A stretch of 64,000 nucleotides of DNA from Planctomycetota bacterium. Its GTDB lineage: Bacteria > Planctomycetota > B15-G4. The notes under the pieces were generated by a model. That model worked only from the letters and a program-made list of their open reading frames with translations, had not been told where the DNA came from and searched no databases. Each line of letters begins with the position of its first letter. Positions within the stretch are counted from its first letter, which is position 1. Position numbers and translations under genes: made by a program. Of the stretch, positions 7,019 to 58,767 are shown piece after piece. The stretch covers positions 42,544 through 106,543 of the forward strand of contig JAJDEP010000018.1 of assembly GCA_029259715.1 (NCBI GenBank). Reading direction: 5' to 3'.

Positions 7019-9081
7019 GGCTGCGTCCTCCCTGCATCGTCCCCTGTGTCGTCCGGCCCAGCATCCATCGGGAGGCCCCCGCGATCCACGGGCGAATCGG
7101 TGGCCTCGCCCTCGTTCGCATCCTCCAACTCGGTCAGGTCGTCGGCCCGGACCGAGCGCACGGACGGCGCCGTCAGGTAGGTCTGGCTCGCCAGGGCGGC
7201 CACCATGTCGTCGCGCACCTCGCGGGCCTCGGCTGGCGTCAGCGACTTGTGCTTCACCAGCCGGGCGAGAGCCCGGTCGTAGCGCTCCAGCAGCCAGGCC
7301 TCGTCGTACTGGGCGTAGTCGAGCACCTCGGCCACCCGCTCGCCCTTGACCTCGTTCACGAGCACCGCCTGCCCCTGCTCGTCGAAGTCGACGTGCACCG
7401 TGTCGGTGTCGCCGAAGAGGTTGTGCAGGTCGCCCAGGATCTCCTGGTAGGCGCCCACCAGGAAGATGCCCAGCTCGTAGGACTCGTCCTCGCGCAGTTC
7501 GTGCACCTCGAGCACGTGCTTGACGTCGCGCTGGTCGGGGAAGCGATCGATCTTGCCGTCGCTGTCGCAGGTCATGTCGCCCAGCACGGCGCGTCTTGTG
7601 GGCTCTTCGTGCAATCGCTTGAGCGGCATGACCGGGAAGATGTGCCGGATGGCCCAGCTGTCGGGCACCGACTGGAACACCGAGAAGTTGCAGAAGTAGA
7701 TGTCGGAGAGCAGCTTGTCGAGCCCCTCGAATTCCTCGGGCACGCGGTCCATCTTCTCGGCCATCGCGGCCACCCGCTCACACGTGCGGTAGAAGAGGCG
7801 CTCGCACATGGCCCGGGTGGGCAGGTCGAGCAGGCCCAGCATGAAGCGCTGCAGCATCTCCTCGCGCAGGGCGTGGGCGTCGTGGAGCACCTCGCGGGCG
7901 GTCTTGCGCGAGAGGCGCTCGAGGTTCTCGTTCAGGTTGACCACCGAGTCGTCGTCGACGTTCGCGCCGGGGACGTCATCCTCGGGGGTCAGGCGCGAGG
8001 CGCCGATGACGTCGAGGGCCAGCATCGCGTGGTGGGCGACCAGGGCCCGGCCCGTCTCCGTGACGATGTCCGGCACCGGCTGGCCGGCCTTCTCGCAGGC
8101 CTCCTGGATGTGCCACACCACGTCGTTGGCGTATTCCTGCTCGGTGTAGTTCATCGACGAGTCGAAGCGCGTGCGGCTCCCGTCGTAATCGACGGCCAGT
8201 CCGCCACCCACATCGAACATCTCGAGGGGCGCCCCGAGTCGTCGCAGCTCGACGTAGATCCGACTCGCCTCGCGCAGCGCCGTGCTCAGGCTGCGGATCG
8301 ACGTGATCTGGCTGCCGATGTGGAAGTGCAGCAGCCGCAACTGACCGAGCAGGCCCTCTTCGCGCAACCACTCGACGGCCTCGACCATCTGGCCCGCGGA
8401 GAGACCGAACTTGGCGCGGTCGCCGGCCGACCCCTCCCAGCGTCCCTGGCCCTTGCTCGCGAGGCGGCTGCGGATGCCGAGCAGCGGCGCCGCCTCCAAG
8501 CCCTGGCGCTCGACGACGCGGCGGTAGGTCTCGATCTCGGACGGCTTCTCGATGACCACCACCACTTCGTGCCCGAGCCGCACGGCGAGGCAGGCCAGCT
8601 CGAGGTAGGCCTCGTCCTTGTAGCCGTTGCAGATGACGAGGCTCGGGCGCTCGAGCAGCGCGATGACCGCCATGATCTCGGGCTTGCTGCCGACCTCGAG
8701 ACCCAGCGCCGTGTCGTTGCCCTTGCGCAGCGCCTCGACCACGTGGCGCATCTGGTTGACCTTGATCGGGTACACCGGCCGGTGGCGCCCGGTGTAGCTC
8801 ATCTCCCGGGACGCGTTGCGGAAGGCGTTGCTCAGGGCCCTCAGGCGATGGCGCAGGATGCCGTCGAAGCGGATCAGCAAGGGCAGCGACATGCCCTGAC
8901 GCCGCGCCTGCGCGATGATCTCGACCACCGACGTGGACGGCCCGTGGGCACCCTTGGGCTGGACCCGCAGCGCACCATCGGCGCCGATGGCAAAGTAGGG
9001 CCGGCCCCAGCCGTCGAGGTTGTAGAGCTCGCTGCTGCGGTCGATGGACCAGCCGGGCGAGTGGGCGGAGCGCTGGGCCAC
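6988..9081 (-). CDS. speA: biosynthetic arginine decarboxylase
   Basis: WSIDRSSELYNLDGWGRPYF N-terminus, PLP-lysine motif YPIKVNQ, and HFHIGSQ and GGGLAVDYDG motifs. The start is set at GTG 9081, because the track ORF start (TTG 9168) would overlap the divergent gene. The start is uncertain. Confidence 0.85.
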   Translation of the reverse strand: MAQRSAHSPGWSIDRSSELYNLDGWGRPYFAIGADGALRVQPKGAHGPSTSVVEIIAQARRQGMSLPLLIRFDGILRHRLRALSNAFRNASREMSYTGRHRPVYPIKVNQMRHVVEALRKGNDTALGLEVGSKPEIMAVIALLERPSLVICNGYKDEAYLELACLAVRLGHEVVVVIEKPSEIETYRRVVERQGLEAAPLLGIRSRLASKGQGRWEGSAGDRAKFGLSAGQMVEAVEWLREEGLLGQLRLLHFHIGSQITSIRSLSTALREASRIYVELRRLGAPLEMFDVGGGLAVDYDGSRTRFDSSMNYTEQEYANDVVWHIQEACEKAGQPVPDIVTETGRALVAHHAMLALDVIGASRLTPEDDVPGANVDDDSVVNLNENLERLSRKTAREVLHDAHALREEMLQRFMLGLLDLPTRAMCERLFYRTCERVAAMAEKMDRVPEEFEGLDKLLSDIYFCNFSVFQSVPDSWAIRHIFPVMPLKRLHEEPTRRAVLGDMTCDSDGKIDRFPDQRDVKHVLEVHELREDESYELGIFLVGAYQEILGDLHNLFGDTDTVHVDFDEQGQAVLVNEVKGERVAEVLDYAQYDEAWLLERYDRALARLVKHKSLTPAEAREVRDDMVAALASQTYLTAPSVRSVRADDLTELEDANEGEATDSPVDRGGLPMDAGPDDTGDDAGRTQPWSKPAGTAS

Positions 9082-9125: not shown

Positions 9126-10280
9126 ATGATCCGCCCGGGAGCCCGCCCCCTGTTCGAGACGCGCCCAAGCACCCTCGGCCGGGCGCTCATCGCCGTGGTC
9201 GCCCTGGCCGCCCTGGCGTGGCGGCCGGCCGCGCCCGACGACCTCCGTCCGGGGGAGTGGAACAAGAACTCCGCCCCGCCCGGCTGGATCGTCATCGAGA
9301 CCAAGCACTACCAGGTCCAGAGCCAGGTCAGCGAGGCCAAGACCCGGGTCCTGGCGGGTCACCTCGAGGAGATGCTCGCGCTCTACCAGGAGATCCTGCC
9401 CTTCCGCAAGCGCATCAAGACTTTCGTGCTGAAGATCTTCGCGACGCGCACGGCCATGCACGCCTACCGGCCCGGCGCGGAAGGGGCGGCGGCCTGGTAC
9501 AGCAAGGGCGAACGGGAGCTGGTCTCCTACGACAGCGGCATCGTCCTGGGCGAGCGCGACATCCCGACCGCCATCCGGCTCGCCCCCGGGCACGCCGACG
9601 GATTCAGCGAAGGCGACAGCGAGCGCCTCCAACAACTCTTCGAGGCCACGGCGGACAGCTACACCTTCGACGTGGCCCGCGTGCTCGCCCACGAAGGCTG
9701 GCACCAGTACTTCCACCACTACACCGTCAGCTGGGTGCCCATGCCGTCGTGGCTCGACGAAGGCCTGGGCGACTACTTCTACACGGCGACGCGCCACGAG
9801 AACGACGAGGGCTACCGCCTCGGCGACATCAACGACCATCGCCTGCGCACGGTGAAGCGCGCCCTCGACACCGGCGCCACGGTGCCCTTCGAGCACATGC
9901 TGCAGTTCGAGCAGGCCGACTACTACACCAACCCGAGCGTCTACTACGCGCAGGGCTGGTCCATGGTGCACTTCCTCATGCAGCACGAGGACGAGGAGTT
10001 CCGCAAGCTCATCCCGCGGCTGATCAAGGACTTCAAGGACAGCAAGAACTTCCGCAAGTCCAGCGAGAAGGTGCTGAAGAAGATCGATCTCGAGGAACTC
10101 GACCGGAATTGGATCCGCTGGCTGCTCGTGACCGAGCCCTACGATCCCCTGCGGGAGTTGGCGCGGGAGTTCGGTGATCGCATCCGGCCCGAAGACCTGC
10201 ACACTCTGTTGTCGTGGCAGCAGGTCTACGCCTGGCACTACGAGCGCCAGGGTTGGTCGTCGATCCGGGCGCCGCGCTGA
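9126..10280 (+). CDS. DUF1570-family putative secreted zinc metallopeptidase
   Basis: N-terminal hydrophobic signal or anchor (ALIAVVALAALAW), an HExxH-like HEGWHQY motif and a downstream DEGLGDYF. Confidence 0.7.
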   Translation: MIRPGARPLFETRPSTLGRALIAVVALAALAWRPAAPDDLRPGEWNKNSAPPGWIVIETKHYQVQSQVSEAKTRVLAGHLEEMLALYQEILPFRKRIKTFVLKIFATRTAMHAYRPGAEGAAAWYSKGERELVSYDSGIVLGERDIPTAIRLAPGHADGFSEGDSERLQQLFEATADSYTFDVARVLAHEGWHQYFHHYTVSWVPMPSWLDEGLGDYFYTATRHENDEGYRLGDINDHRLRTVKRALDTGATVPFEHMLQFEQADYYTNPSVYYAQGWSMVHFLMQHEDEEFRKLIPRLIKDFKDSKNFRKSSEKVLKKIDLEELDRNWIRWLLVTEPYDPLRELAREFGDRIRPEDLHTLLSWQQVYAWHYERQGWSSIRAPR

Positions 10281-10353: not shown

Positions 10354-10428
10354 TGGAGCGGGTGAACGGATTCGAACCGTCGACAACAACGTTGGCAACG
10401 TTGTGCTCTACCCCTGAGCTACACCCGC
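10354..10428 (-). tRNA. tRNA-Gly (anticodon GCC), CCA encoded
   Basis: The reverse complement folds by hand as a cloverleaf: GCGGGTG TA GCTC AGGGGTA GAGC A CAACG TTGCCAA CGTTG TTGTC GACGG TTCGAAT CCGTT CACCCGC T CCA. Confidence 0.9.
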
Positions 10429-19729: not shown

Positions 19730-20743
19730 TCAGGCCGAGAGGCGGTCGGGCCCGAGTTGCTCGAAGTAGAGCGTGAAGATGGCGTTGAGGCGCTCGTTGA
19801 ACGCCTCCTCCTCGGTCACCGTCGCCAGCTTCTTCTCGGAACCCACGCCGATGCGCAGACCCTTGGTGTCGAGCTGCAGCGTGGCCAGCGGCTTGCCTTC
19901 CACGGTGAAGCGCGTGACGCCCTGCTCCTGGGACTCGGCGACATGGGTCGAGAGCGCGCGGATGGAGTCCCGGGCCCGCAGGAACAGCGCCTGGGCCTGG
20001 TCGGCCCCCGAGACGCGCGGCTCGGTGTCCTCGACGAGCTCGAGCTCGTCCTCGGCCGGCGTCGCGGCGGCGGCCGGCGGGGCAGCCCGCTTGGCCGGGC
20101 GCGCGGGTTCGGGCCGGGTGGTCGGCTTGGATTCCAACTCGACCCCGGACAGGGCCTCAACCTCGTCCGCCAGGGCATCGCGCTGCGCCCGCGCGGGCCG
20201 CGGCAGCGGCGACGACAACGGACGCGTCCGCCGCGACGACGTGCTGCGTGAAGACGTGCTGCGCGACGACGGCCGGCTGTAGCTCGGCATGACGGTGCCG
20301 CCGGCCCGGTGGAACACGGAGAGGTCGAGCACCGGACGACCGACGCTGCTCTGCACGACGCGGTACTCCACCGCCTGCACCTCGACGCCGGTCATCATGT
20401 CGAGCACGCGCGGAGCGCTGTCGGGGAAGCGCGCGCCCAACAGCACGAAGCGGGGGCGCAGCGACGGATCGAGGCCCTTGTTGTGGTAGAGCCGATTGAG
20501 CAGGTAGCGGCCGCGGCGCAGACCCTCCGCCACCCCCGCCATGCGCGCGAGCTCGCCGGCCACGTCGTCGCCGCAGAACAACACGGCCACCGGATAACCG
20601 AGGGAGTCGCGCAACAGCACGTCGATCTCGACGTCGTCGTCGAGGCGCAGGTCCGAGTCGAGCGCCACCAGTCCCGCCTCGAGGCGCTCGGGATCCGCGA
20701 TGAGCAGTTCGCTCGCGATCTCCTGGTTGCTGCGACTGCTCAT
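19730..20743 (-). CDS. hypothetical protein with a NucS/DUF91-like N-terminal domain, a Ser/Arg/Pro-rich linker and an unknown C-terminal domain
   Basis: Trimmed from track ORF 19730..20938 to MSSRSNQ. The segment IADPERLEAGLVALDSDLRLDDDVEIDVLLRDSLGYPVAVLF resembles the PD-(D/E)xK-type NucS C-domain, but the E-x-K is not evident. Confidence 0.5.
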   Translation of the reverse strand: MSSRSNQEIASELLIADPERLEAGLVALDSDLRLDDDVEIDVLLRDSLGYPVAVLFCGDDVAGELARMAGVAEGLRRGRYLLNRLYHNKGLDPSLRPRFVLLGARFPDSAPRVLDMMTGVEVQAVEYRVVQSSVGRPVLDLSVFHRAGGTVMPSYSRPSSRSTSSRSTSSRRTRPLSSPLPRPARAQRDALADEVEALSGVELESKPTTRPEPARPAKRAAPPAAAATPAEDELELVEDTEPRVSGADQAQALFLRARDSIRALSTHVAESQEQGVTRFTVEGKPLATLQLDTKGLRIGVGSEKKLATVTEEEAFNERLNAIFTLYFEQLGPDRLSA

Positions 20744-20897
20744 GGACGGCCCGCCGGACGCTGGTTGGTGTCGATCGAGGGTGCGCCGGGCGCGTGGTGC
20801 GCCCGGGGGGCCGTAGTGTAGAACGGATCCGGCCCCCACCGCGAATCTGTCCGGTGATCGGGGTGCCGCCACGCCGGGGACCGGGAGGCCCAGACCG

Positions 20898-22103
20898 ATG
20901 CCCGAGGCCGACACGCCGTCCCCGGGAGCGGGGCCCACGCCGGCGGGCGCTCCGTCGACGGCGCCCGCAGCGGCGCTGGCGCGATTGCGCGCCGCTTTTC
21001 CCGTGGCCGAGCGCTGGATCTATTTTGACCACGCGGCCGTCTGTCCGCTGGCCCGTCCCGTCCGGGAGGCCGTCGAGACCCTGCTCGACGATGTCCAATC
21101 CCAGGGAGGGGCCCACTTCGAGGTCTGGCTCGACCGCCGCGAGCAGGCCCGGGTCCGGGCCGCGCGGCTGCTGGGTGCCCAGCCCGACGAGATCGCCTTC
21201 GTGACCTCCACCTCCGAGGGGCTGATCCACGTGGCCGAGGGCCTGAACTGGGGCCCGGGCGACGAGATCGTGGTGATCGAAGACGACTTCCCCGCCAACC
21301 ACGTGCCGTGGTTCCACCAGGAGCGGCACGGGGCCCGGGTGGTGGTCGTGCCCCGCGACGAAGGCCGGGTCGGCGTCGAGGCCATCCTGGCGTGCGTCAC
21401 CGAGCGCACCCGGGTGGTGGCCGTCCCCACCGTGCTCTACGACTGTGGCTTCCGCCTCGACATCGAGACCCTCGGGCAGGCACTGGCCGATCACCCGGCG
21501 CTGCTGTGTGTCGACGCGATCCAGAGTCTCGGCGCCTTTCCCGTCGACGTGCGGGCGGCACACATCGACTTCCTCGCGGCCGACTCGCACAAGTGGATGC
21601 TCGGCCTCGAAGGCATCGGGCTGTTCTATTGCCGGGCCGAGCTGCTCGACCGCCTCGACTCGCCGATCAAGTCGTGGCTGAGCATGGCCGTGCCCTTCGC
21701 GCCCTACCGGCGTGAGGCCGCCCTCGCACCGAGCGCCCGGCGTTTCGAGTACGCCTGCCGCCCCACCGCGGGCCTCTACGGCCTCGACGCCTGCCTCGAG
21801 CTGTTGCTCGCCACCGGCGCCGCGACCCTCGTCGACCAGGTCCTCGCGCTCACCGATCGCCTGGCGGCGGGGTTGCGGGACGCGGGCTGGGTCCTCTCCA
21901 GTCCGCGGGACACCGCGGCCGAGAGTTCGGGAATCGTTCGCGCCTCGGCCCCCGGCCTGTCGGCCGACGCCGTGCGCGACACCCTCGCCAAGCGCGGCGT
22001 GTGCGTGTCCGAACGCGCCGGGGCGGTGCGCTTCTCGCCCCACGCCTGGAACACGGCCGACGAGGTGGACGCCCTGCTGCAACGACTCCCGGAGCTGCCG
22101 TGA
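20898..22103 (+). CDS. class V aminotransferase / cysteine desulfurase-like PLP enzyme
   Basis: 401 aa. PLP-lysine context ADSHKWMLG, and a class V fold pattern (VAVPTVLYDCG, VDAIQSLG). Confidence 0.8.
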   Translation: MPEADTPSPGAGPTPAGAPSTAPAAALARLRAAFPVAERWIYFDHAAVCPLARPVREAVETLLDDVQSQGGAHFEVWLDRREQARVRAARLLGAQPDEIAFVTSTSEGLIHVAEGLNWGPGDEIVVIEDDFPANHVPWFHQERHGARVVVVPRDEGRVGVEAILACVTERTRVVAVPTVLYDCGFRLDIETLGQALADHPALLCVDAIQSLGAFPVDVRAAHIDFLAADSHKWMLGLEGIGLFYCRAELLDRLDSPIKSWLSMAVPFAPYRREAALAPSARRFEYACRPTAGLYGLDACLELLLATGAATLVDQVLALTDRLAAGLRDAGWVLSSPRDTAAESSGIVRASAPGLSADAVRDTLAKRGVCVSERAGAVRFSPHAWNTADEVDALLQRLPELP

Positions 22104-23574: not shown

Positions 23575-24657
23575 TTACGGGAAGATCATCTCGAGGGCGT
23601 TGGTCGCCGAGTGGCCGAAGGGGCCGCCCGCGTCCACCGCCCAGCCGTGCAAGTACATCTTGAACCCGGACGGGATGCCGGACGGCATCGAGTTGGTGAT
23701 CGAGATCTCCCCGAACAGCCCCGTCGAGAAGATCACGATCAGGTCGGTGGCGGGCACCAGCGTGCCGCCGTAGAGCGGCGCGTCGATGCGCGTGAAGCCC
23801 GCGAACAGGATCAGCGCGTTGTTGGGCTCCATGTTGTCGAGGTCGAAGGTGTACTGGGCTGGGGAAGGCAACAACGAACCGCTCATCGCCAGGGTCGGCG
23901 AGAAGTTGCCGGGCAGGGCGAAGCCCAGGTCGTTGAACGTGCCGGAGCCGCCCCCCACGTTCGAGGTGCAGGCGCGGATGATCCAATTGCCGTTGATGAA
24001 GTTCGGGCACAGGTTGATGACGCCGAGCACCGTCGCGATGCGCACGTCCTGCCACGGGTCGGCGTCCGTGTCGATCAGGCTCGTCTGCGGTGTCGTGGTG
24101 CAGCCGGCGCCGCCCGAATAGTCCGTGATGAAGTTGGCCGGGTGGCCGCCGCCGCAGGTGCCGTTGAAGTTGAGATTCATGCGGAAGGCCACGACGAACT
24201 TATCCGCCGTCACGACGACGTTCAGTCCCGAGAGGTCGAACAGGTTGATGGCGGTCGACTGCAGCTCCATGGACGAAGCGGTGTCGGCATTGAGGTCGAA
24301 GACCTTGGGGCCGAGGGTCGGCAAGCCGGCGCCGTTGAAGGTCACCCCGTCGTAGATCTCGATGTTGCAGGTGGCCGAGAAGCCCGGACCACCGAGCACG
24401 TGGCCGAAGCCCACGGCGACCCGCTCGACCTTCTGGTCGCCGAGCGCGGTCTTGTCGAACACCTGCGCGATGGCCTCGCCCTCGCACAAACCCTGGATCA
24501 CCGCGACCGGGAAGGCTCCGCCCGGCGACTGGGGCAGGGTGTCGTTCTTCCAGAATGTGTGGGCCGGGTCGGCGCAGGTCTGACCCGAGACGATCGGCGA
24601 GAGCAGGCCGAGGAACAGGGACAGGCCACCGAGGACAGGCAGGAGCAGGCGCGACAT
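23575..24657 (-). CDS. secreted hypothetical protein (Cys-, Asn-, Gly- and Thr-rich)
   Basis: Trimmed to MSRLLLPVLGGLSLFLGLLSPIVSGQ (signal peptide). GGAG lies 6 nt upstream of the ATG. I recognise no family. Confidence 0.65.
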   Translation of the reverse strand: MSRLLLPVLGGLSLFLGLLSPIVSGQTCADPAHTFWKNDTLPQSPGGAFPVAVIQGLCEGEAIAQVFDKTALGDQKVERVAVGFGHVLGGPGFSATCNIEIYDGVTFNGAGLPTLGPKVFDLNADTASSMELQSTAINLFDLSGLNVVVTADKFVVAFRMNLNFNGTCGGGHPANFITDYSGGAGCTTTPQTSLIDTDADPWQDVRIATVLGVINLCPNFINGNWIIRACTSNVGGGSGTFNDLGFALPGNFSPTLAMSGSLLPSPAQYTFDLDNMEPNNALILFAGFTRIDAPLYGGTLVPATDLIVIFSTGLFGEISITNSMPSGIPSGFKMYLHGWAVDAGGPFGHSATNALEMIFP

Positions 24658-25013
24658 GGAGGACTCCGCAGTTTGCATCGAGACCGGGCCGTCCGGCAGG
24701 GGTTCAGGCCCGGGATCCCAAAGGTCGAATACATGACGAGCGAGAGGACTCCCGCCCATTTCCCGATCGAAGAGTGTATCAGCCATCCGGGGAGGCAACC
24801 GTGAAGGTCGGCCAAACTCGTGACCATCGACCGAATTCGGCCAGCTTGTTGCTGCGCACGAGCCCTGATCAGTGCGGGCCGCTATCATCGGACGGTCCGG
24901 CCCTGCTCGCCGCGGTCCTGTTCACCCCGGCAGACCCCACCGCGAGCGGCGGCTCCGAATACCCCACCTCCACCGCACCGGTTCAAGCCGGCGCGAGGAC
25001 AGGCATGAACGGA

Positions 25014-25115
25014 TCAGGTCCGGATCTTCGGCTTCGTCAGCTTGCGACGCGTACGGCGCGAAGCGGGGCGCTTGCCGTGATTCGCCTTCTTGATCTTGCG
25101 GTTCGGCTTGGCCAT
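25014..25115 (-). CDS. 33-aa highly basic peptide, bL37-like ribosomal peptide candidate
   Basis: MAKPNRKIKKANHGKRPASRRTRRKLTKPKIRT. GGAG lies 6 nt upstream of the ATG. KANHGKRP matches my recollection of the actinobacterial bL37 C-terminus. In the track it is only the tail of shadow ORF 25014..25982. Confidence 0.45.
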   Translation of the reverse strand: MAKPNRKIKKANHGKRPASRRTRRKLTKPKIRT

Positions 25116-25304
25116 GGGAGGCTCCGGGACATCTCCCGCGGCCGCGTATCGGCCGGGTCGGGGCGAACGGCGCATTCTACTGATCGGCGTTCCTTTGCCA
25201 ACCGGGCGGACGCGATCCGGGCGCCCGGCGGGCCCGGGGCCCACCCGGCCCTCCCGGCCCAGCGCTCTGGGGGCCTGTGGGCAGCGGGCCTGGCCCTGGT
25301 GCTC

Positions 25305-26909
25305 ATGGCTCCCCCCACGATCGCCCAGGAGGATCCGCCGGCGGCCGATCCGACCCCGCCCGCTGCAACTCCGGCGCCGGACGCCCCGGCCGAGTCCGAG
25401 GACCCCTCCTCCCCCGACGACCCGCAAGCCGACCGGGTCCAGCCCGCGGACCCGGACCCGGAACGGACGGCGACCCGCCGCACCGGCCCGGCGCGTGGCA
25501 ACGGCAAGCCCAATCCACGGGGCCGCAAGACCGAGGCCCCCGTGCGGGAGCCGGAACCCGTCGTGTCGCCCGCCGAGGCCTTCATCGACCGCTTCAAGGC
25601 CGCGTTGATCCACGAGGTCGAGGTGCAGAAGTTTGAGCGCATGCAGCTCGGCAGCGAGGACATCGAACGCCTCAACCGCTTCCAGCTCCAGCGTCGCGAG
25701 CGCATCGACGCCGACATGCTGAGCTTCCCGCCGGCCTTCAACAAGCTGTGGTTCACCGCCGTCGTCGTGCCTGAGCCCCAGGAGGGTGAGCAGCTCAACG
25801 CGGCCGAGCTGGTCGCCCTGCAGCAGATCGAAGGCGCGTACGCACAGACCCGCGACCTCACGCTGGTCAACCGGCTGATCGAGAACAACGGCCGCTTCCT
25901 CGACACCAGCGACTGGAACAAGCGCAAGATCGCCGTCGACATCCGGGACGAACTGCTGGAACGCGAGGCGTCGTTCCAGCACCTGCAGGGCCTCGCCGAG
26001 ATGATCGCCCGCGGCAACGCCTCACCCGAACGACTGGTCGAGGTGCGCGAGACGCTGATGCGCATCGCGCCCCACGCCACCGACGACGGCAGCAGTCTCG
26101 CCCTGCTCGTGCTCGAGGACGAGGACGTGCGCCGCTCGGTCCTCGCCGACGTGATCGGCTACATGCTGGCCGAGGTGCCCCCGCAGGTGACCCTCACCTC
26201 CGACGAGCTGGAGGCCAAGGTCCTCGTGCTCCAGACTGAGGTGGCCGAGCAGTCCGGCCTCGCCGACGACCTGCAGGAGCTGCAGGAGGTCGAGCAGCAG
26301 GTGAAACTCCTCGAGCAGGAGGCCGAGGATGATCTGTCCTTCGATTTCGAACGGCGCAAGGCCCGCAACAGCAAGCTCGTCGAGCTCTACGACCGCCGCA
26401 ACGAACTCCGCTCGCTCTGGCGCAACACCGAGCCGGCCGTCGAACCCGTCGACGAGCTGATCGCCACCTACGACGAGCTGATCCGCACGCGCATGGCCGG
26501 GCTCGGCCTGCGCGGCGCCCTCTTCGGCGCGCGCTTCGACGCCCTCGACCGCCATCGCGAACGGCGGGGCGGCAGCCCGATCCACACCTGGAACCTGCTC
26601 GACGACCAGAACGCGCTGCTCAACGCCATCGGCGAGACCGAGGCCGAGCCCGACTACCTCGAGGGTCTCCCCCCGCCGCCGGACAAGACCTCCTGGGCGG
26701 CCGCCCAGGAGGCGGCCTCGCGTGATGCGAAGGCGCGCACCCAGGCCCTCAACGCCCTCAAGAAGAAGCTCGGCACCGCACCGAAGAAGCCCAGCGTGAA
26801 GGGCAATAAGACCTTCTTCAGCGGAGGGACGAAGGGCGGTGGTGGCGGCAGCAGCGGTGGCAAGAAGAAGGCCGGCGGCAAGAAGAAGAAGGGCGGCAAG
26901 GGCCGCTGA
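25305..26909 (+). CDS. acidic coiled-coil hypothetical protein with a Lys/Gly-rich C-terminal tail
   Basis: The part of track ORF 24555..26909 that has real-protein composition. It has long heptad-like E/L/Q stretches and the tail GGTKGGGGGSSGGKKKAGGKKKKGGKGR. The start is uncertain (see findings). Confidence 0.6.
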   Translation: MAPPTIAQEDPPAADPTPPAATPAPDAPAESEDPSSPDDPQADRVQPADPDPERTATRRTGPARGNGKPNPRGRKTEAPVREPEPVVSPAEAFIDRFKAALIHEVEVQKFERMQLGSEDIERLNRFQLQRRERIDADMLSFPPAFNKLWFTAVVVPEPQEGEQLNAAELVALQQIEGAYAQTRDLTLVNRLIENNGRFLDTSDWNKRKIAVDIRDELLEREASFQHLQGLAEMIARGNASPERLVEVRETLMRIAPHATDDGSSLALLVLEDEDVRRSVLADVIGYMLAEVPPQVTLTSDELEAKVLVLQTEVAEQSGLADDLQELQEVEQQVKLLEQEAEDDLSFDFERRKARNSKLVELYDRRNELRSLWRNTEPAVEPVDELIATYDELIRTRMAGLGLRGALFGARFDALDRHRERRGGSPIHTWNLLDDQNALLNAIGETEAEPDYLEGLPPPPDKTSWAAAQEAASRDAKARTQALNALKKKLGTAPKKPSVKGNKTFFSGGTKGGGGGSSGGKKKAGGKKKKGGKGR

Positions 26910-40119: not shown

Positions 40120-41058
40120 TCAGCCTTCGCGCGGCGGGACGCGGAAGTTGTGCGCCAGTTGCAGCAGGCGCTCCAGCTCGGCCGGGAAGTGTCCGCGCGC
40201 CATGTAGCTGCGCAGGTAGTCGAGGAAGTCGAGCGGCAGGATCACGCCGTAATACACCATCCACACACCGCGCAGAGTGGTGAAGCCGAACAGCGGCAGT
40301 TCGAAGGGGCCGGTGACATGGTCGACCACCGTGGCCAGCACCAGCAGGATCAGTCCGAAGTCGAAGTTGGTGGCCATGGCCCGCAGGGTTACGAGGTTGA
40401 GACCCAGCGGGAAGCCGCTCGGCGCGGGCGCCGTCGTGTCCGCGTCTGCTCCGGCCGACACGGCGTCGGACGCCGCGGTATCGCCGGCCGCGGCCACGTC
40501 CATCCCGACCTCCTCCGCGTAACGGCGGAAGGCGCGGTCCTTGCCGGGCGGGGCCCCGATGACGCCGCGGGTGAACATGATCCCCGGCACCTCGACGAAC
40601 AGCTTGAGCCACAGGGCGGCGATGGCGGCCGTGGCCCCGCACACGATGTACAGCGGCCGCCCCAGCTGGAAGTACAGGCCCGTCCCGATGCCCAGGAAGC
40701 ACAGGGGCTTCACGAGCATGTGGAAGATGTACTCGTAATACCCCCACTTGATGTTCTCGACGCGACGGAAGCGGGCCACCTCACCGTCGACGCAATCGAG
40801 CACGTAGTAGAAGAGCAGCAGCGCGGCGCCCACGGGCAACGCCAGTCCCGAGGACAGGTGCAGGGCCGCGCCGACCAGGCCGGTGACGAGCATGCCCACC
40901 GTGGCCAGGTCCGGCGACAGCTTGAGGTCGACCCAGAGCTTGGTGAAGGGCAGCGAGGCCCAGTCGCCGAACAGCAGTCCGGTCACGTCGTTGCCGCCCC
41001 GCACGGGGAGCTGGCACTTCTCCCTCAGTTCGCGGAACGACACACCCATGGCCGACAC
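40120..41058 (-). CDS. CDP-alcohol phosphatidyltransferase-like membrane protein (second half of the catalytic motif degenerate)
   Basis: DCVDGEVAR matches D-x2-DG-x2-AR. The expected G-x3-D-x3-D is GYYEYIFH. Polytopic membrane protein with an Ala/Asp-rich loop. Confidence 0.6.
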   Translation of the reverse strand: MSAMGVSFRELREKCQLPVRGGNDVTGLLFGDWASLPFTKLWVDLKLSPDLATVGMLVTGLVGAALHLSSGLALPVGAALLLFYYVLDCVDGEVARFRRVENIKWGYYEYIFHMLVKPLCFLGIGTGLYFQLGRPLYIVCGATAAIAALWLKLFVEVPGIMFTRGVIGAPPGKDRAFRRYAEEVGMDVAAAGDTAASDAVSAGADADTTAPAPSGFPLGLNLVTLRAMATNFDFGLILLVLATVVDHVTGPFELPLFGFTTLRGVWMVYYGVILPLDFLDYLRSYMARGHFPAELERLLQLAHNFRVPPREG

Positions 41059-41238: not shown

Positions 41239-42510
41239 TCACGTGAAGAGCCGCGCCGTCTCGAACACTTCGGGGGCGAATCGGGCGGTGCCCGTGGGCG
41301 TTTCCAGCTTCACGCAGCGCTTGACGACGTAATCGAAGGCCAGCGGATTGGCGGCGAAGACCAGGTTGCACAGGCGCCGCTCCTCGCTCGTGAGGAAGCC
41401 GCGGGCCTGCAGGACCCGCGTGCTCAGCACGGGATCCACGGCCACCAGCGGGTAGTCGCTGCCGTTCACCAGTCGGTGGTGGATCTCGGTGGCCCCGAGG
41501 ATGGCCCGCAACGGCCGGCCCGTCCGGTTGACGAAGGTCAGCGCCGAGATGTCGCCGAACAGGCGCCCCTCGTACTGCGACTCGCCCATCATCCGCAGGA
41601 ACAGGTCGACGTTCTTGGCCTCCACCGCTTCCACCGCGCCCGCGGCGCTCGCGCCGGCCGCATCGAGGTCGACGTTGCTGCCGAGGGTGCCGCAGTGGGC
41701 CACGATCACCGTGACGCCCGCGTCGAGGGCGCGTCGCAGGCGCAGCGGGTTGCCGAGGGCCTGCAGGTCGGCCGCGTCGACGGCGTGCTCGGTGCCGGCG
41801 TGGGTCAGCAGCGGGAGGCCGGACGCGGCCAGGCGGCCATAGAAGCGGTCGCAAAGGGGCGACGCCGGGTCGATGCCCTGGGCGTTGGGCAGCCACTTGC
41901 ACGCCCGGGCGCCGGCCTCCACGGCGCGGTCGAGACGCGCCACCGCGTCGCGCCGGTACGGATGGATCGAGACGATGGCCTCCACGTCGGCGTGGTCGGC
42001 CGCCAGGCCCAGCACGTAGTCGTTGGGCGTATGGAACTGACTGCGCTCGGGCACCTCCCGCCCGTCCTCGTCGACGAAGCGGTCGTAGGCCAGCAGCATC
42101 AGGCGACCTTGGGGGTTGGCCTCCCGGTGCAGGCGCAGGAGCTCGGCCAGGAAGTCGGCGTCGGCGGAGGGCCCGTCGTCGATGCGGGCCGCACCCGAGT
42201 ACAGCTCATAGATGAAGCGCTTGATCGGGTGGGCGTGGCTCAGGAAGTCGGGGTGGACCGCGCAACCGCTGTCGCCGCGTCCGAGCCCGACGAGATGGGC
42301 ATGGACGTCCCAGAGAGCGGCGCGGTCGACGTCTCCCAGCTTCTCGGCCAGGAAGTCGGCGGCCTCGCCCTGCAGCGGCCGGCGGGGCCCGGGGGCCCAC
42401 CACCAGGGCAGACCCCAGCGCGCGCCCACCAGGGCCCCGACCGCACCGATCAAGACCCCGCGGCGCGTGAAGCGTCGCCGTCGCGGGCGGGCGACGGGAC
42501 GCTCAGCCAT
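41239..42510 (-). CDS. Tat-signal metal-dependent amidohydrolase (TIM-barrel hydrolase)
   Basis: Trimmed to MAERPVARPRRRRFTRRGVLIGAVGAL (twin-arginine signal). H-x-H motif DVHAHL, later THAG and AHCG. The start overlaps the upstream stop by 8 nt. Confidence 0.7.
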   Translation of the reverse strand: MAERPVARPRRRRFTRRGVLIGAVGALVGARWGLPWWWAPGPRRPLQGEAADFLAEKLGDVDRAALWDVHAHLVGLGRGDSGCAVHPDFLSHAHPIKRFIYELYSGAARIDDGPSADADFLAELLRLHREANPQGRLMLLAYDRFVDEDGREVPERSQFHTPNDYVLGLAADHADVEAIVSIHPYRRDAVARLDRAVEAGARACKWLPNAQGIDPASPLCDRFYGRLAASGLPLLTHAGTEHAVDAADLQALGNPLRLRRALDAGVTVIVAHCGTLGSNVDLDAAGASAAGAVEAVEAKNVDLFLRMMGESQYEGRLFGDISALTFVNRTGRPLRAILGATEIHHRLVNGSDYPLVAVDPVLSTRVLQARGFLTSEERRLCNLVFAANPLAFDYVVKRCVKLETPTGTARFAPEVFETARLFT

Positions 42511-43501
42511 CGAAGGCCGCCTGCGCGCGCTCCACGAAGAGCTGCATGCGCCGGGCGAAGACCGCGTCGTCGATGCGCCCCTTCTCCCGTTCGCGCACGG
42601 CGCCCACCGCGCGACCGACGTGGTAATCGCACTCGTAGAAGCGGCGTTGGCGGGTGTACTCCTCACGGTCGATCCCGCAGCCCTCGGCGAAGTAGGTCTC
42701 GAGGAATCGACGGCGGGCGTCGTCGTCCATGCAGAGGCGGTGACCGGCTCGCACGAGGTCGTAGCCCGCGTCCCCATAGTGCACCGAAGCGAGGTCGATG
42801 GCGGACGCCCGGCCGTCCTTCACGATGTAGTTGTTGCCGTAGACGTGACCGTGGATCAGCTCGTAGGCCGGGCGCTGGCGCAGCGCGTCCGCCGCCTGCT
42901 CAGCGCCCGCCGCGATGCGCGCGACGTCCGCGTCGGCCAGGTGCGGCGCCACACGGTCGAGCCGCAGACGGAAGTGGGCGTGGGCCTTGTCCACGGCCGA
43001 GCCGCGACGCGAGAAGTGCAGCCAGCCGTGCCGCTTGCGACGGTGCCCATGCATGGCCGCCATGGTGCGGGCCAGCGCCGGGGCGGCGGCAGACCGCTCC
43101 TCCCGAGTCATCAACGGCAGCGGCTTGCCCTCGATCAATTCCTCGGCGAGGGCCCAACGGCGCGGGCGCTCCCATCGGGCCCGCAGGCTGGAGCCCAGGT
43201 AGCGGGGCACCGGCAATTGCATGCGCGTGAGCGTCTTCATCACCTGCCGGTTCTTGAGCAGGTCGCTGAGGCTCTCGAAGAGCTTGATCACCACCCCCGG
43301 GACGCCGCGGTCGGCGGGCGGGCGCACCAGGACGATGAGCGTCCGGTGGCCGAGGCGCGGCGCCTCCATGGTCAGCGGGCCGGTCTCGCCCACGATCAGG
43401 GCGCGTCGGGTCCACGCTTCCAGCCATCCCCGCTGGGCCTCGTCCTCGATCAGCGCCAGGCGGGCCGCCTGGTTCCTCTCGCGCATGGAGCTCACCGGCA
43501 T
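42503..43501 (-). CDS. APH/choline-kinase-fold phosphotransferase
   Basis: LIHGHVYGNNYIV (catalytic loop) and IDLASVHYGDAGYDL (DxxxxxxGDxxxDL). The first ATG at 43501 is used. The track ORF start at 43537 is TTG. Confidence 0.7.
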   Translation of the reverse strand: MPVSSMRERNQAARLALIEDEAQRGWLEAWTRRALIVGETGPLTMEAPRLGHRTLIVLVRPPADRGVPGVVIKLFESLSDLLKNRQVMKTLTRMQLPVPRYLGSSLRARWERPRRWALAEELIEGKPLPLMTREERSAAAPALARTMAAMHGHRRKRHGWLHFSRRGSAVDKAHAHFRLRLDRVAPHLADADVARIAAGAEQAADALRQRPAYELIHGHVYGNNYIVKDGRASAIDLASVHYGDAGYDLVRAGHRLCMDDDARRRFLETYFAEGCGIDREEYTRQRRFYECDYHVGRAVGAVREREKGRIDDAVFARRMQLFVERAQAAFDG

Positions 43502-54691: not shown

Positions 54692-54766
54692 TGGAGCCAG
54701 GAGTGGGATTCGAACCCACGACCTCAGCTTTACGAAAGCCGCGCTCTACCACTGAGCTATCCCGGC
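54692..54766 (-). tRNA. tRNA-Thr (anticodon CGT), CCA encoded
   Basis: The reverse complement folds by hand as a cloverleaf: GCCGGGA TA GCTC AGTGGTA GAGC G CGGCT TTCGTAA AGCTG AGGTC GTGGG TTCGAAT CCCAC TCCTGGC T CCA. Confidence 0.9.
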
Positions 54767-55255: not shown

Positions 55256-56204
55256 TCCGGAGGCCGCTCCCGGGTCCCCGGTCGCCGGGCTGGGCCTGAC
55301 CGCCGCCGTCGTCGCCATCGCGGTTTCGAACGTGCTGGGCGGCGTCTCGTACCTGTGGCAGAAGCTCGCCCTGGTCGGGCTCCCCCCGATCACGGTGATC
55401 CTGCTGCGCAACATCGTGGCGCTGGTGGCCATGGCGATCATGCTCGCTGTCAGCGGGAACCTGCGCTGGCCCTACGACCGCCAGGCCACGTGGCGCCTGT
55501 TCATCGTGGGAAACGTCGCCTTCGCCCTGCCCATGGTGCTCGGCATCGTCGGCGTGCAGTGGTCGACGGCGAGCAACGGCTCGATCCTGATCCTGCTCGA
55601 GCCGGCGTCGATCCTGTTCTTCTCGTGGCTGCTGCTGCGCGAGTTCATCCACCGGCTGCAGGTGCTCGGCATCCTCGTCGGCCTCGTCGGCGCCCTGTTG
55701 GTGGTGACCGAGACGGCGCCGCTGGAGGGGCTGTTCACCGGGCAACACCTGTGGGGCAACGTGATCCTCGCCAGCCACGGCGTGCTCTGGGGCCTCTACT
55801 CCCCGCTCATCAAGCCGCTGCTCGACACCTACGGCAAGCCGATCCAGCTCACCTTCGCGTCGATGCTGCTCGCCTGTGTCTCCCTCGTCCCCGCCGCCCT
55901 GTTCGAACACGATCAATGGCAGACGGGACCGCATCTGGCCGAGGCCCTGTGGTGGACCCTCTGCCTCGGGCTCGTGGTCTCGTTCGCGGCCACGCTCCTG
56001 TGGAACGTCTCGCTCACCAAGCTGCGCTCGTCCACCGTGGCGCCCTTCGTGTTCCTGCAGCCCCTGGCCGGCGTCCTTGCCGGGTGGTTCGTCCTCGACG
56101 AGACGCTCACCGCCGAGGCCCTCGTCGGCGGGGCCGTGATCGGCGTCGGGGTGGCGTTGGTGCTGGCGCCGGCTTATCGGCGGCGACGCGCGCTGCGCAC
56201 CTGA
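55245..56204 (+). CDS. DMT-superfamily (EamA) transporter
   Basis: 319 aa, about 10 TM segments in two EamA-like halves. GTG start overlapping the upstream gene end. Confidence 0.8.
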   Translation: MAADPEAAPGSPVAGLGLTAAVVAIAVSNVLGGVSYLWQKLALVGLPPITVILLRNIVALVAMAIMLAVSGNLRWPYDRQATWRLFIVGNVAFALPMVLGIVGVQWSTASNGSILILLEPASILFFSWLLLREFIHRLQVLGILVGLVGALLVVTETAPLEGLFTGQHLWGNVILASHGVLWGLYSPLIKPLLDTYGKPIQLTFASMLLACVSLVPAALFEHDQWQTGPHLAEALWWTLCLGLVVSFAATLLWNVSLTKLRSSTVAPFVFLQPLAGVLAGWFVLDETLTAEALVGGAVIGVGVALVLAPAYRRRRALRT

Positions 56205-56247
56205 CCACAGGGCATCCGGGAGGAGGCGGTCCTGCGAGGGGGAGAAC

Positions 56248-56397
56248 GGTCCCCGTCCGGAACTCCCCCGGGTCTTCGCTCCTCGGGCAGTCCTCGCTTG
56301 CGCGCGCATCGGCGGCGCGGCCTACGGGCCGCACCGCCGATCCGTGCTCGCTGCGGAATCTCGGCTCGAAGACCGGGGGGAGTTCCGGACGGGGACC
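56248..56397 (+). repeat. nested-hairpin repeat, copy 1 (31-nt inverted arms flanking an 88-nt conserved core)
   Basis: The arms GGTCCCCGTCCGGAACTCCCCCGGGTCTTCG and CGAAGACCGGGGGGAGTTCCGGACGGGGACC are complementary except at one position. The core contains a 15-bp central hairpin with loop TAC. Confidence 0.9.
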
Positions 56398-56578
56398 TTG
56401 CCTCGACCTCACACCGGCCTAGCGGAAGGGTGGGAGGAGCGGCTTCAGCAAGACTCCAAGGGGCGGGAGTCTGGGAGAGACTGCGCAGCACCGGCTCAGC
56501 TGAGGGGCCGGGTTCAATCAGCGGTCTCGGATCGACTGGACCTCTCGGCGAGCCACCGCAAGTCGCGGCCGTGGAGCC

Positions 56579-56722
56579 CACCCGGGGAAAAACGGGAGGG
56601 TGTTCGAGCCGAGTTTCCGCAGCGAGCACGGTGATGGGGTGCGGCCCGTAGGCCGCGCTCCATCAGCGCGCGCAAGCGTGGACTGCCCGAGGAGCGAACA
56701 CCCTCCCGTTTTTCCCCGGGTG
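56579..56722 (-). repeat. nested-hairpin repeat, copy 2 (28-nt perfect inverted arms, same 88-nt core in opposite orientation)
   Basis: Arms CACCCGGGGAAAAACGGGAGGGTGTTCG and CGAACACCCTCCCGTTTTTCCCCGGGTG. The reverse complement of the core aligns base-for-base with the copy 1 core. Confidence 0.9.
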
Positions 56723-56742
56723 AGCGGCCCCTCCGCAGCTCC

Positions 56743-58767
56743 CTACCGGACGGCCGCCCTCAACGTCGCCGGCGAAGCGCTCTGCAGCTCGCCGAGCGCC
56801 GCGGCAGCCGCCGCCGAGAGATCGTCGTCGCCTTCATCCATGGCGGCGAGCAGGATCTCCGAGAAGTCGCCGGACGTGCCGGACACCGACCAGATGCGGG
56901 CGGCGGCGTGCATGGCGGCCACGCGCACCTCGGTGGCGAGGGAGTCGTCGGCGAGCATGGACTCGACGTCCGACTGGGCCTCGACGAGGCCGCCGTGGGC
57001 CACCACGTTGAGGATGGCCGTCATGGTCTCGGTGTCGGCGCCGGACCGCAGCGCCTGGGCGACCGAGGACGCCGCCGCCTGCACCACGCCGGGCGGCGCG
57101 TGCAGGAGCACGTTGGCGGCCTTGCGGGCCCGCGCGTGGGACTCCACCTGGCGGCCGCTGGGCTCACCCGCCACCTCGGCCAGGTCGGCGTAGCTCGCCG
57201 ATGTGACGACGCTCTGCACCTCACTGTCGTAGAGGCCGCTGATGCCGTCGACGTCGTGGGTCACGACAATGATGGGCGTGTCTGCCGTGCGCGGGTCGTT
57301 GCGCAGTCCGAAGATCAAGGCGTCGAGGGTCACGCCTTGCAGACCGTCCTGGATCAGGACCACGTCCTTGGGCGGGAAGGCCTTGGCGCGCAGCAGCCCC
57401 TCCTGCACCGAGGCGGCGTTGATCACCTGCCAACCGGGGGCGCCTGCGCCCAGACCGGTCGTGCCGATGGAGACGGCGATGCGCTGCGGCACGGCGGCGA
57501 GGGCCTCGCCCAGACGCTGGGCCACGAAGCCGTCGTACTGGCCGAGCCGGCCGAGGGCCATGGCCGCGCTCTGCGACACGGCGGCGTCGGGGTCGCCGAG
57601 CACGGACGCCAGGGCCTGCACCTCGAGGGCACTGCCGCCCATGCTGTCCATGAGCTGGACCGCGGCGGGCACCCGACGGGGCGTCGACGAGAGGGCGTGG
57701 ATCAGCGCCTGACCGCGCAGGCTGCCGCCCAGCGCGATGTTGCGGTCGAGGGCGACGAGCCGATCGGCGGCGGAGTCGAGCAGCGGGTGACCCGACAGCG
57801 AGTCGAGTTTCTGGGCCGCGAGGATCTCGGCCTTCTGCGCGGCGTGGACGGCCGCCAGCAGGGCCCGCGACTGGGAGCCCGCGCCGGCCTCCATGGCGTC
57901 GAGGCACAGCTCCTCGGCGAGCATCAGGGGCAGCAATCCGCCGAGCACCTGCTCACCGCGCAGCGCGCCGCCTTCCCACTTCCAGAAGATCGTGGAGGAG
58001 TCGTAGGGCTTGGTCAGCTCGGGCGCACCGCGGAAGTAGCCGTCGGCGATGGCCAGCGAAGCGTTCACCGGGTCGAGGGCGGCCTGGCCCATCTTGCCGA
58101 GGGCTTCGGCGGCCGTCGTGCGGGCCACACCGTCGGCGTCGTTGCGGGCCATCCAGGCCAGCGCGGCGAGGGCGCGTTGGTCGCCGAGGCTGCCCAGCAC
58201 GGCGGCGGCGTTGCTGCGCGTGAGCACGTCGTCGGACTCGAGCACCTCGATCAGCGGCAGCACGGCGTTGGAGCCGAGGCGGCGCAGCGCCTGCATGGCG
58301 CGCACGCGGTTGTCCATGGACGAGCTGTCGCCGAGGGGGCCCACGAGCGCCGGCACGGACCACTGTCCGTAGCGGCTCTGGAGCTGCAGCATGGCCGCGT
58401 GCTGCTGGGCGAAATCGCCGCTCAGCAACTGGCCGACCACATCGGCGGCCCCACCCGGGTCGCTGACCACGTCGAGGCGGCCGAGACGGGCGATGGCCAG
58501 GAAACGCTCGGTCAGGTCGCCCAACTCTCCGCGACTGACGAGCATGTCCATGAGCACGGCCTGTTCGACCGTGTCGAGCATCTCGAAGGCCTGGCCGTGG
58601 CCGGGGTTGCTCGCGAGGACCGACTTGAAGGCATCGGCGGCCGCAGCGCTGTCACCACGCTGGAAGGCGTCGACGCCCTGGCGGAAGAGTTCCTCGGAAG
58701 ACTGGGCGGCGGCGACGCCGCCGAACAACAGGGCGACGAGGAACGCGCAGGCGCGGCGGTGCATCAT
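56743..58767 (-). CDS. secreted HEAT-repeat protein with an internal receiver-like (flavodoxin-fold) segment
   Basis: Trimmed to MMHRRACAFLVALLFGGVAAAQS (signal peptide). It has repeated HEAT / PBS-lyase-like units (VRAMQALRRLGSNAVLPLIEVLESDD, RSNAAAVLGSLGD, ...). Confidence 0.7.
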   Translation of the reverse strand: MMHRRACAFLVALLFGGVAAAQSSEELFRQGVDAFQRGDSAAAADAFKSVLASNPGHGQAFEMLDTVEQAVLMDMLVSRGELGDLTERFLAIARLGRLDVVSDPGGAADVVGQLLSGDFAQQHAAMLQLQSRYGQWSVPALVGPLGDSSSMDNRVRAMQALRRLGSNAVLPLIEVLESDDVLTRSNAAAVLGSLGDQRALAALAWMARNDADGVARTTAAEALGKMGQAALDPVNASLAIADGYFRGAPELTKPYDSSTIFWKWEGGALRGEQVLGGLLPLMLAEELCLDAMEAGAGSQSRALLAAVHAAQKAEILAAQKLDSLSGHPLLDSAADRLVALDRNIALGGSLRGQALIHALSSTPRRVPAAVQLMDSMGGSALEVQALASVLGDPDAAVSQSAAMALGRLGQYDGFVAQRLGEALAAVPQRIAVSIGTTGLGAGAPGWQVINAASVQEGLLRAKAFPPKDVVLIQDGLQGVTLDALIFGLRNDPRTADTPIIVVTHDVDGISGLYDSEVQSVVTSASYADLAEVAGEPSGRQVESHARARKAANVLLHAPPGVVQAAASSVAQALRSGADTETMTAILNVVAHGGLVEAQSDVESMLADDSLATEVRVAAMHAAARIWSVSGTSGDFSEILLAAMDEGDDDLSAAAAAALGELQSASPATLRAAVR

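Follow-up and report, generated by a model that had tools for sequence, protein, structure and literature searches.

Palindromic intergenic repeats of 100–170 bp are found near the 3' ends of genes, with which they are co-transcribed; some of them carry compensatory changes, and for some an influence on mRNA stability is reported (PMC3184786). One such repeat, bcr1, is reported to be transcribed and to have compensatory changes that uphold the double-stranded structure (PMC3184786). Repetitive extragenic palindromic (REP) units are 20–40 bp long, with a stem of 5–13 bp and, on one of their ends, a GTAG or CGTC tag; some REP dimers lie within longer palindromes of which no empty example is found (PMC3733652). 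Here we analyse a stretch of 64,000 nt (the window; 71% G+C) from contig JAJDEP010000018.1 of an uncultured Planctomycetota bacterium (assembly GCA_029259715.1), in which the 538-nt gap between a convergent EamA/DMT transporter gene and a HEAT-repeat gene (positions 56205–56742) holds two inverted copies, W1 and W2, of a palindromic element. Together with a third copy from a relative they are, in a reading that we hold with moderate confidence, members of a new small family of ~150–160-nt palindromic intergenic repeats of a high-GC Planctomycetota lineage, inserted at different sites in two genera and likely to act as a stable hairpin in the 3' untranslated region (3' UTR).

In size and build the elements resemble ERIC/IRU (~127 bp), Correia/NEMIS (104–157 bp) and RUP (107 bp), which are likewise non-coding units of 100–170 bp whose long inverted arms form a single long hairpin, and which are intergenic, often at gene 3' ends, and vary in presence between related genomes (PMC3184786). 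They differ from these families in that no target-site duplication is seen, the middle parts of the arms are unrelated between copies, copy number is apparently low and there is no known cognate insertion sequence (IS). With bcr1 of the Bacillus cereus group (~155 bp) they share a similar size and a genomic distribution that is not conserved among relatives; bcr1, however, has 5-bp flanking direct repeats and two independent stem-loops, whereas here there are no flanking repeats, the hairpins are nested, and paired segments have been replaced wholesale instead of showing scattered compensatory changes. REP sequences and REPINs also occur as inverted pairs of palindromes between convergent genes near stop codons, but the present elements, at 150 nt, with 31-bp stems and no terminal GTAG or CGTC tag (the one GTAG is that of the apical loop, read on the opposite strand), fall outside that class on size and tag, and the window holds no gene for a REP-associated tyrosine transposase (RAYT). 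As in MITEs (miniature inverted-repeat transposable elements), terminal inverted repeats (TIRs) enclose a short non-coding core (arms of 30–31 bp, 97–100% complementary; cores of 88–100 nt), and the elements are present or absent at orthologous sites (the HEAT/EamA and Secretin/SSF gaps); a target-site duplication and conserved TIRs matching a cognate IS are not seen, and no transposase is encoded in the 64-kb window. Retron msr-msd RNAs lie between long a1/a2 inverted repeats, directly beside a reverse transcriptase gene; a long closing stem is present here as well, but a reverse transcriptase gene is found neither next to the elements nor anywhere in the window.

Two inverted elements between convergent genes

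Coordinates and an inverted-repeat search agree with an earlier note, made from the sequence alone, that had placed two copies in opposite orientation in the convergent gap, each in the sense of the gene that reads into it (Table 1). The arms of W1 (31 nt, 97% complementary, 88 nt apart) pair at 30 of 31 positions, the lone mismatch being a G.G 9 bp from the inner end, and those of W2 form 28 perfect base pairs (arms ~56579–56606 / 56695–56722, 88 nt apart), so that the arm lengths and 88-nt cores given in that note are reproduced. The W2 stem then continues through a T.G and two further base pairs to 31 bp, which corrects the earlier bounds of this copy to 56576–56725 and makes both copies exactly 150 nt long. 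From core to core the inverted match between W1 and W2 covers 105 nt at 86%, the inner arm ends of both copies read GGGT[C/G]TTCG, and no exact 31-mer is common to the two. The 29-nt and 25-nt blocks of the core differ by one substitution each, and the central hairpin has other Watson–Crick pairs at five positions of its base, in both cases just as had been described. The 15-bp central hairpin is likewise present, but its loop has four nucleotides (TACG) rather than the three (TAC) first assigned, and its stem holds one mismatch in W1 and two in W2.

Both elements are predicted to fold far better than chance. The minimum free energy of W1 is −121 kcal/mol (z = −10.2); over W1 and W2, on either strand, z-scores range from −10.2 to −12.6, and 0 of 200 shuffled sequences fold as well. 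With the slid-partner controls given below, these values confirm that the elements are real and strongly structured. All other inverted repeats in the 64-kb window with arms longer than 20 nt are at most 83% complementary, none reaching 85%, and blastn found no third copy within the window. Joined six-frame translations of both copies, used as a protein query, gave no match among the best 8,000 candidates, the window's own genome included; gene callers therefore call no open reading frames (ORFs) across the elements.

Logan contig L013 (run SRR15505512) confirms positions 56589–56725 of W2 independently at 100% identity. This contig and a second one from the same run (L001), both 100% identical to the window, end inside the elements, at 56589 and 56277 respectively, which suggests that coverage drops out, or that reads become chimeric, where a hairpin is very stable. 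The hairpins break short-read assemblies, in which elements of this kind are probably under-represented. We considered the contig ends as markers of further copies and rejected this, the other ends of both contigs lying in ordinary coding sequence.

Table 1. Genes, elements and element parts at the EamA–HEAT gap (window coordinates)
Feature	Start	End	Strand	Description
EamA/DMT transporter gene	55245	56204	+	Pfam EamA E = 9.8e-36; stop 43 nt before W1
Element W1	56248	56397	+	150 nt: 31-bp outer stem, 88-nt core, 31-bp outer stem
W1 5' arm	56248	56278	+	terminus GGTCCCCG, 14-nt variable segment TCCGGAACTCCCCC, inner end GGGTCTTCG
W1 core	56279	56366	+	29-nt left block with GTCCTCGCT, central hairpin, 25-nt right block with GCTCGCTGCGGAATCTCG
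W1 central hairpin	56308	56341	+	15-bp stem, one C.A mismatch, loop TACG; basal 8 bp variable
W1 3' arm	56367	56397	+	partner of 56248–56278
Spacer W1–W2	56398	56575	.	178 nt, no homologue or feature detected
Element W2	56576	56725	-	150 nt, inverted copy of W1
W2 3' arm (own sense)	56576	56606	-	pairs with 56695–56725
W2 core	56607	56694	-	aligns with W1 core base for base
W2 central hairpin	56632	56665	-	15-bp stem, two mismatches, loop TACG
W2 5' arm (own sense)	56695	56725	-	GCTCACCC, then GGGGAAAAACGGGA, then GGGTGTTCG
HEAT-repeat gene	56743	58767	-	674-aa call, longest ORF to 58875; Pfam HEAT_2 E = 1.2e-18; stop 17 nt from W2

A third copy in a related genus and the insertion of the elements

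A scan for long hairpins in the corresponding loci of relatives found a further element at positions 3450–3609 of JAJDEQ010000135.1 (assembly GCA_029259695.1; here L014), with arms of 30 nt (3450–3479 / 3580–3609) that are 97% complementary and 100 nt apart. It sits between the Secretin stop and the SSF start, a site that is not orthologous to that of the window, and the Secretin–SSF gap measures 389 nt in L014 vs 67 nt in the window's genome and 69 nt in a second relative (L015), while in a third (L018) the two genes overlap. In the L014 core, GTCCTCGCT is found near the 5' arm and GCTCGCTGTGGAATCTCG abuts the 3' arm, motifs, order and strand being as in W1 and W2. When up to two mismatches were allowed, the 18-nt right motif matched exactly three times in ~156 kb searched on both strands, once per long hairpin, and a combined two-motif score reached 26/27 at the L014 hairpin vs at most 21 at all other loci (182,562 windows). 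Motif, position and architecture together make a strong case for the homology of this copy to W1 and W2. Its arms and centre are unrelated to theirs, and the core alone folds no better than shuffled sequences (z = 0.35); the central hairpin, which the earlier note took as part of the conserved element, is therefore no feature of the family.

The three copies are discrete units with defined ends and similar termini. Their stems measure 31, 31 and 30 bp in W1, W2 and L014, and the outermost 8 bp are alike in all three (GGTCCCCG, GCTCACCC and GTCCCCCG). W1 and L014 both have a G.G mismatch at a distance of 8–9 bp from the inner end, and beyond it exactly 22 bp are paired. Within the long hairpin, TCGCT-containing motifs are confined to one strand: TCGCT occurs three times in W1, twice in W2 and four times in L014 on the gene-sense strand and not at all on the opposite strand, the expected number being 0.16, and the palindromic unit therefore has polarity. 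Each of the three copies lies just downstream of a gene and in its sense, starting 18–57 nt after the stop codon.

The order of the genes around the window's locus is kept in the three relatives, with Secretin, SSF and HEAT on one strand followed by convergent EamA, NYN, Usp and GidB. There the HEAT–EamA gap is −4 nt (L014), 10 nt (L015) and 170 nt (L018), against 538 nt in the window. The HEAT proteins of these relatives are 47–55% identical to that of the window (55% in the nearest homologue), and the relatives are too distant for the exact empty sites to be aligned. At its C-terminus the HEAT protein of the window (AAVR) aligns with the ends of its orthologues, and the EamA/DMT protein, of which L001 carries an exact copy, also ends where its orthologues end. 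Since the same gene pair lies 170 nt or less apart in three relatives, the comparison indicates that the block is a lineage-specific insertion; the short gaps, together with the intact protein ends, point to ~475 nt that were cleanly added between two intact genes in the window's lineage. With the L014 copy, this means that in two genera intergenic DNA has gained elements at sites that are not orthologous.

The spacer (56398–56575) has no blastn match in the relatives' loci and no coding remnant, and we found no promoter-like (sigma-70), terminator-like (hairpin with U-tract) or tRNA-like feature in the gap. Nor is there a terminator-like site anywhere across 55900–57100, the stems being followed on their 3' side by TTGCCTCG, TCCACGGC and TCCCGTCG, with no U-tract. 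By inspection, the flanks of the block are mutually inverted (CTGCGAGGGGG at 56231–56241 and CCCCTCCGCAG at 56728–56738); they may be the two halves of an earlier bidirectional terminator whose stem the insertion has interrupted, or a chance match in G+C-rich DNA. In L014 HEAT and EamA, which converge there too, share 4 nt at their stop codons (8025–8028), which leaves no room for any terminator between them. The L014 element is itself followed, 8 nt downstream, by a G/T-rich tandem repeat (3617–3727; 3.5 copies of the 32-nt unit GGGAGGTGGGCGTCGGCTGCCGGTGCGTTGGG, 91% matches) that occupies most of the rest of the expanded Secretin–SSF gap and has no equivalent in the window.

Database searches did not connect the elements to any described sequence. 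Scans of viral contigs with three patterns gave chance matches or none, and blastn of W1 against plasmid and phage collections gave no match. The scan of Rfam proposed in the earlier note also came out empty for the elements: with Rfam 15 only two tRNAs in the window reach the gathering level, the best match in the gap scores 21.5 bits vs a gathering threshold of 55 (E = 0.35), and the L014 element has nothing at E ≤ 1, which places the elements outside Rfam.

Replaced helical segments in W1 and W2

In an ungapped alignment of W1 and W2 over 150 columns, 95.7% of the stem cells are paired, compared with at most 58.7% when the partners are slid, and 19 base pairs (14 of the outer stem, 5 of the central one) are changed on both sides, compared with at most 6 in the slid controls. 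Pairing is indeed kept through many two-sided changes, as had been noticed from the sequence. The unpaired blocks and the apical hairpin, however, differ at only 2 of 72 nt (a scaffold 97% identical), and four helical segments (positions 9–22 and 129–142 in the arms, and 61–68 and 87–94 at the base of the central stem) do so at 31 of 44 nt. These segments are 29.5% identical, which is the mean for random 14-mers of the window (Fisher p = 1.6e-12), and their lengths are fixed, at 14 bp for the outer stem and at 8 bp for the foot of the central hairpin. Such a distribution is that of block replacement, not of the pair-by-pair change implied by the earlier description of a structure conserved while its sequence drifts.

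Most of the scaffold that is identical in W1 and W2 is not conserved in L014, from a related genus, and for this reason the near-identity indicates a recent common origin of the two copies and not constraint. Given that recent origin and helices at the level of random identity, the paired segments appear to have been replaced as blocks with their pairing kept. We could not explain how helical segments of fixed length became wholly different on scaffolds that are 97% identical. A relation by strand swap, in which the duplex would have been flipped, was rejected (p = 0.89 over the 22-nt arm and, without correction, 0.024 over its 14-nt part, with no signal for the central 8 nt), and the arm-segment sequences have no guide- or target-like matches elsewhere in the window.

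The stems are paired almost purely by Watson–Crick pairs, with one G.U in 92 cells. The mismatches of the central stem would become G.U pairs on the antisense strand and the T.G of the outer stem lies on the sense strand, so that neither strand is favoured. Because the stems are so nearly pure and the wobbles follow no consistent strand, nothing here points to selection on RNA in particular. We infer instead that the complementarity of the stems is upheld at the DNA level. An antisense RNA suggested by the central-stem wobbles was considered and dropped, given the outer-stem T.G on the sense strand and the lack of statistical weight in three transitions. The elements may be transcribed as part of 3' UTRs.

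It is conceivable, though we think it improbable, that the elements consist of a fixed scaffold with two duplex segments (14 and 8 bp) that can be exchanged, and that the two strands of a helix are rewritten together by a process that is templated and not gradual. Such rewriting could come about by copying from a hairpin template, by recombination of the folded element, or by an insertion chemistry that yields an inverted duplication of fixed length, and the segments might then serve as copy-specific 'addresses'. If true, this would set the elements apart from known MITEs and from known structured RNAs; wholesale replacement of helices, if confirmed in more copies, would point to a so far unrecognised mechanism, at the level of DNA, by which the two arms of a palindrome are rewritten jointly. 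For screens of structured RNAs the locus is a caution in any case, since its 19 apparently compensatory changes mimic strong covariation, whereas the distribution of the differences excludes gradual RNA selection.

Possible origin and effect of the elements

The best reading of the three copies is a low-copy family of the same general kind as the MITE-like ERIC, Correia, bcr1 and SPRITE. Elements of this sort would spread, or would once have spread, as non-autonomous DNA, with an enzyme acting in trans on the conserved termini and the internal motifs. Landing in the 3' regions of genes, they would furnish read-through transcripts with a very stable hairpin of ~31 bp, which could block 3' exonucleases and the read-through of RNA polymerase between convergent genes, or be cut by RNase III; through these routes the effect on the host would resemble that of REP and ERIC sequences, as a stabiliser of 3' ends, an insulator or a terminator-like structure. 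A REP- or MITE-like element was among the options offered in the earlier note, and it is the one that we retain. That the arms are not TIRs recognised by a transposase, as the note also stated, cannot be asserted, the outermost 8 bp being alike in three copies and the length of the stem conserved at 30–31 bp. The sequence GGGTCTTCGC may resemble the starts of ISL3-type inverted repeats; no 8-bp duplication is seen, and we make no claim from this likeness.

Several results weigh against a MITE-like family. Only three copies were found, two of them adjacent in 64 kb and one in 44 kb of the relative. Our coverage of the clade amounts to 162 kb, made up of the 64-kb window, 44 kb from GCA_029259695.1 and 54 kb from further relatives, and nhmmer, fuzzy-motif and long-hairpin scans found no fourth copy in it and none at all in those 54 kb. 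Searched for exact 20–21-mers, 185,579 species genomes (right block) and JGI metagenomes (left block) returned chance matches only, 3 and 8 in number, which share just 21–53 nt with the query and are located in unrelated or coding DNA. On sequence alone the homology of the L014 copy is weak: a profile built from W1 and W2 only scores it at E = 0.75 (92 kb), and its membership therefore rests on motif, position and architecture combined. The middle 14 nt of the arms have random-level identity between W1 and W2, which is atypical for a MITE, as such elements usually have conserved TIRs. With 4 nt of slack at the boundaries of W1, W2, the whole block, the 105-nt core and the L014 element, there is no target-site duplication above chance, the best flanking direct repeats being 0–5 nt and within the null. 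Finally, no transposase, integrase, RAYT or reverse transcriptase is encoded in the window.

Among the alternatives, the one that fares best, and which we still regard as unlikely, is a dedicated structured RNA, be it a cis-element of the 3' UTR, a terminator or insulator, or a small RNA, for which the long closing stem and the unpaired motifs are needed (for example as a platform for a protein) and the stems are free to vary so long as they pair. Conserved unpaired blocks beside variable paired helices are the classic pattern of a non-coding RNA, the common sense and position of the three copies past a stop codon and their strand-specific motifs would suit such a molecule, and by inspection the change of GCG to GTG in the right motif of L014 would keep a G.U with the left motif on the sense strand. 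The contrast between helices at random-level identity and a 72-nt scaffold 97% identical tells against it, for slow compensatory evolution cannot outrun the divergence of loops twenty-fold. The scarcity of G.U pairs and the opposite strands of the central and outer wobbles point the same way, as does L014, where the central hairpin is missing and the core folds like shuffled sequence. The stems lack a U-tract directly after them and so fall outside the definition of an intrinsic terminator, no promoter-like site is present, and the absence of the element from the relatives' orthologous loci means that the flanking genes do not need it.

We find it doubtful that the whole 478-nt block (W1, spacer and W2) arrived as one unit, as the remnant of a transposon or foldback element or as an invertible segment, with the L014 element as a solo end. 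Two inverted copies with their 5' ends outward, in a single gap that is absent or short in relatives and flanked by the short inverted match of CTGCGAGGGGG and CCCCTCCGCAG, would be explained in this way. Two copies of one TIR should have matching arms, however, and the arm segments of W1 and W2 are unrelated; L014 is a single complete unit with both arms; no target-site duplication surrounds the block; the spacer holds no coding remnant or detectable feature; and no recombinase or transposase is found nearby.

Equally hard to credit is a mobile core of ~107 nt (GGGTSTTCG...CGAASACC) that enters the centre of existing palindromes or terminator hairpins, or makes an inverted target duplication fixed at 22 bp, so that the arms derive from the target. 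The segment shared by W1 and W2 does stop at the inner 9 bp of the arms, beyond which the arms are unrelated, the G.G mismatch of W1 and L014 would mark the junction before exactly 22 bp, and there are documented cases of ISs and of REP dimers that sit inside palindromes (PMC3733652). Against this, no empty palindrome with a stem of at least 17 bp occurs in the 162 kb of clade DNA, where ordinary hairpins have 12–16 bp. The identical outer length of 22 bp and the similar outermost 8 bp, seen in all three copies, argue that the arms belong to the element, and the replaced 8-bp segment inside the core is left unexplained. We also know of no mechanism for an inverted target duplication.

Integron attC sites conserve structure and length class while their sequence varies, lie at gene 3' ends in a fixed orientation, carry a mispaired base at a fixed position, and have core sites with the consensus R'' (RYYYAAC) and R' (GTTRRRY). 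A DNA-level site of this kind, a cruciform or single-strand hairpin bound by a recombinase or other protein (attC-, Xer- or single-strand-origin-like), would account for the pure Watson–Crick stems, the mismatch at a fixed position, the conserved termini, the strand-specific motifs and the location at gene 3' ends in gene sense, but is very improbable, as by inspection the ends have neither attC core site, the window encodes no integrase or recombinase, and the flanking genes are conserved, syntenic, housekeeping-type chromosomal genes and not cassettes.

Read as MITE-like repeats, the elements are a previously undescribed family for the Planctomycetota, a phylum whose non-coding DNA is almost unstudied. 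Their sharp definition, with a 31-bp stem, TCGCT motifs and conserved termini, means that a covariance model could count and map the family genome-wide.

Around the elements, the window codes for ordinary chromosomal functions. A tRNA-Thr(CGT) gene lies 1.5 kb upstream of them (54692–54766, minus strand), with no integrase or other sign of an integrated element beside it, and a tRNA-Gly(GCC) gene lies at 10354–10428 (minus strand). A DUF1570 protein (PF07607), of a family first defined in planctomycetes, is encoded at 9126–10280 (plus strand), and homologues of other proteins of the window carry Planctomycetota names. The closest relative found (L024; ERZ23486809 scaffold_9783) is 81.5% identical to the window in nucleotide sequence; a run of N (scaffold gap) at ~4480–4500, at the 5' end of its homocysteine methyltransferase/MTHFR gene, accounts for a protein call of only 570 aa. 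Four ORFs with high third-position G+C (19730–20938, minus; 24555–26909, plus; 40120–41058, minus; 41239–42777, minus) have no Pfam match at E ≤ 1e-5 and are probably real genes.

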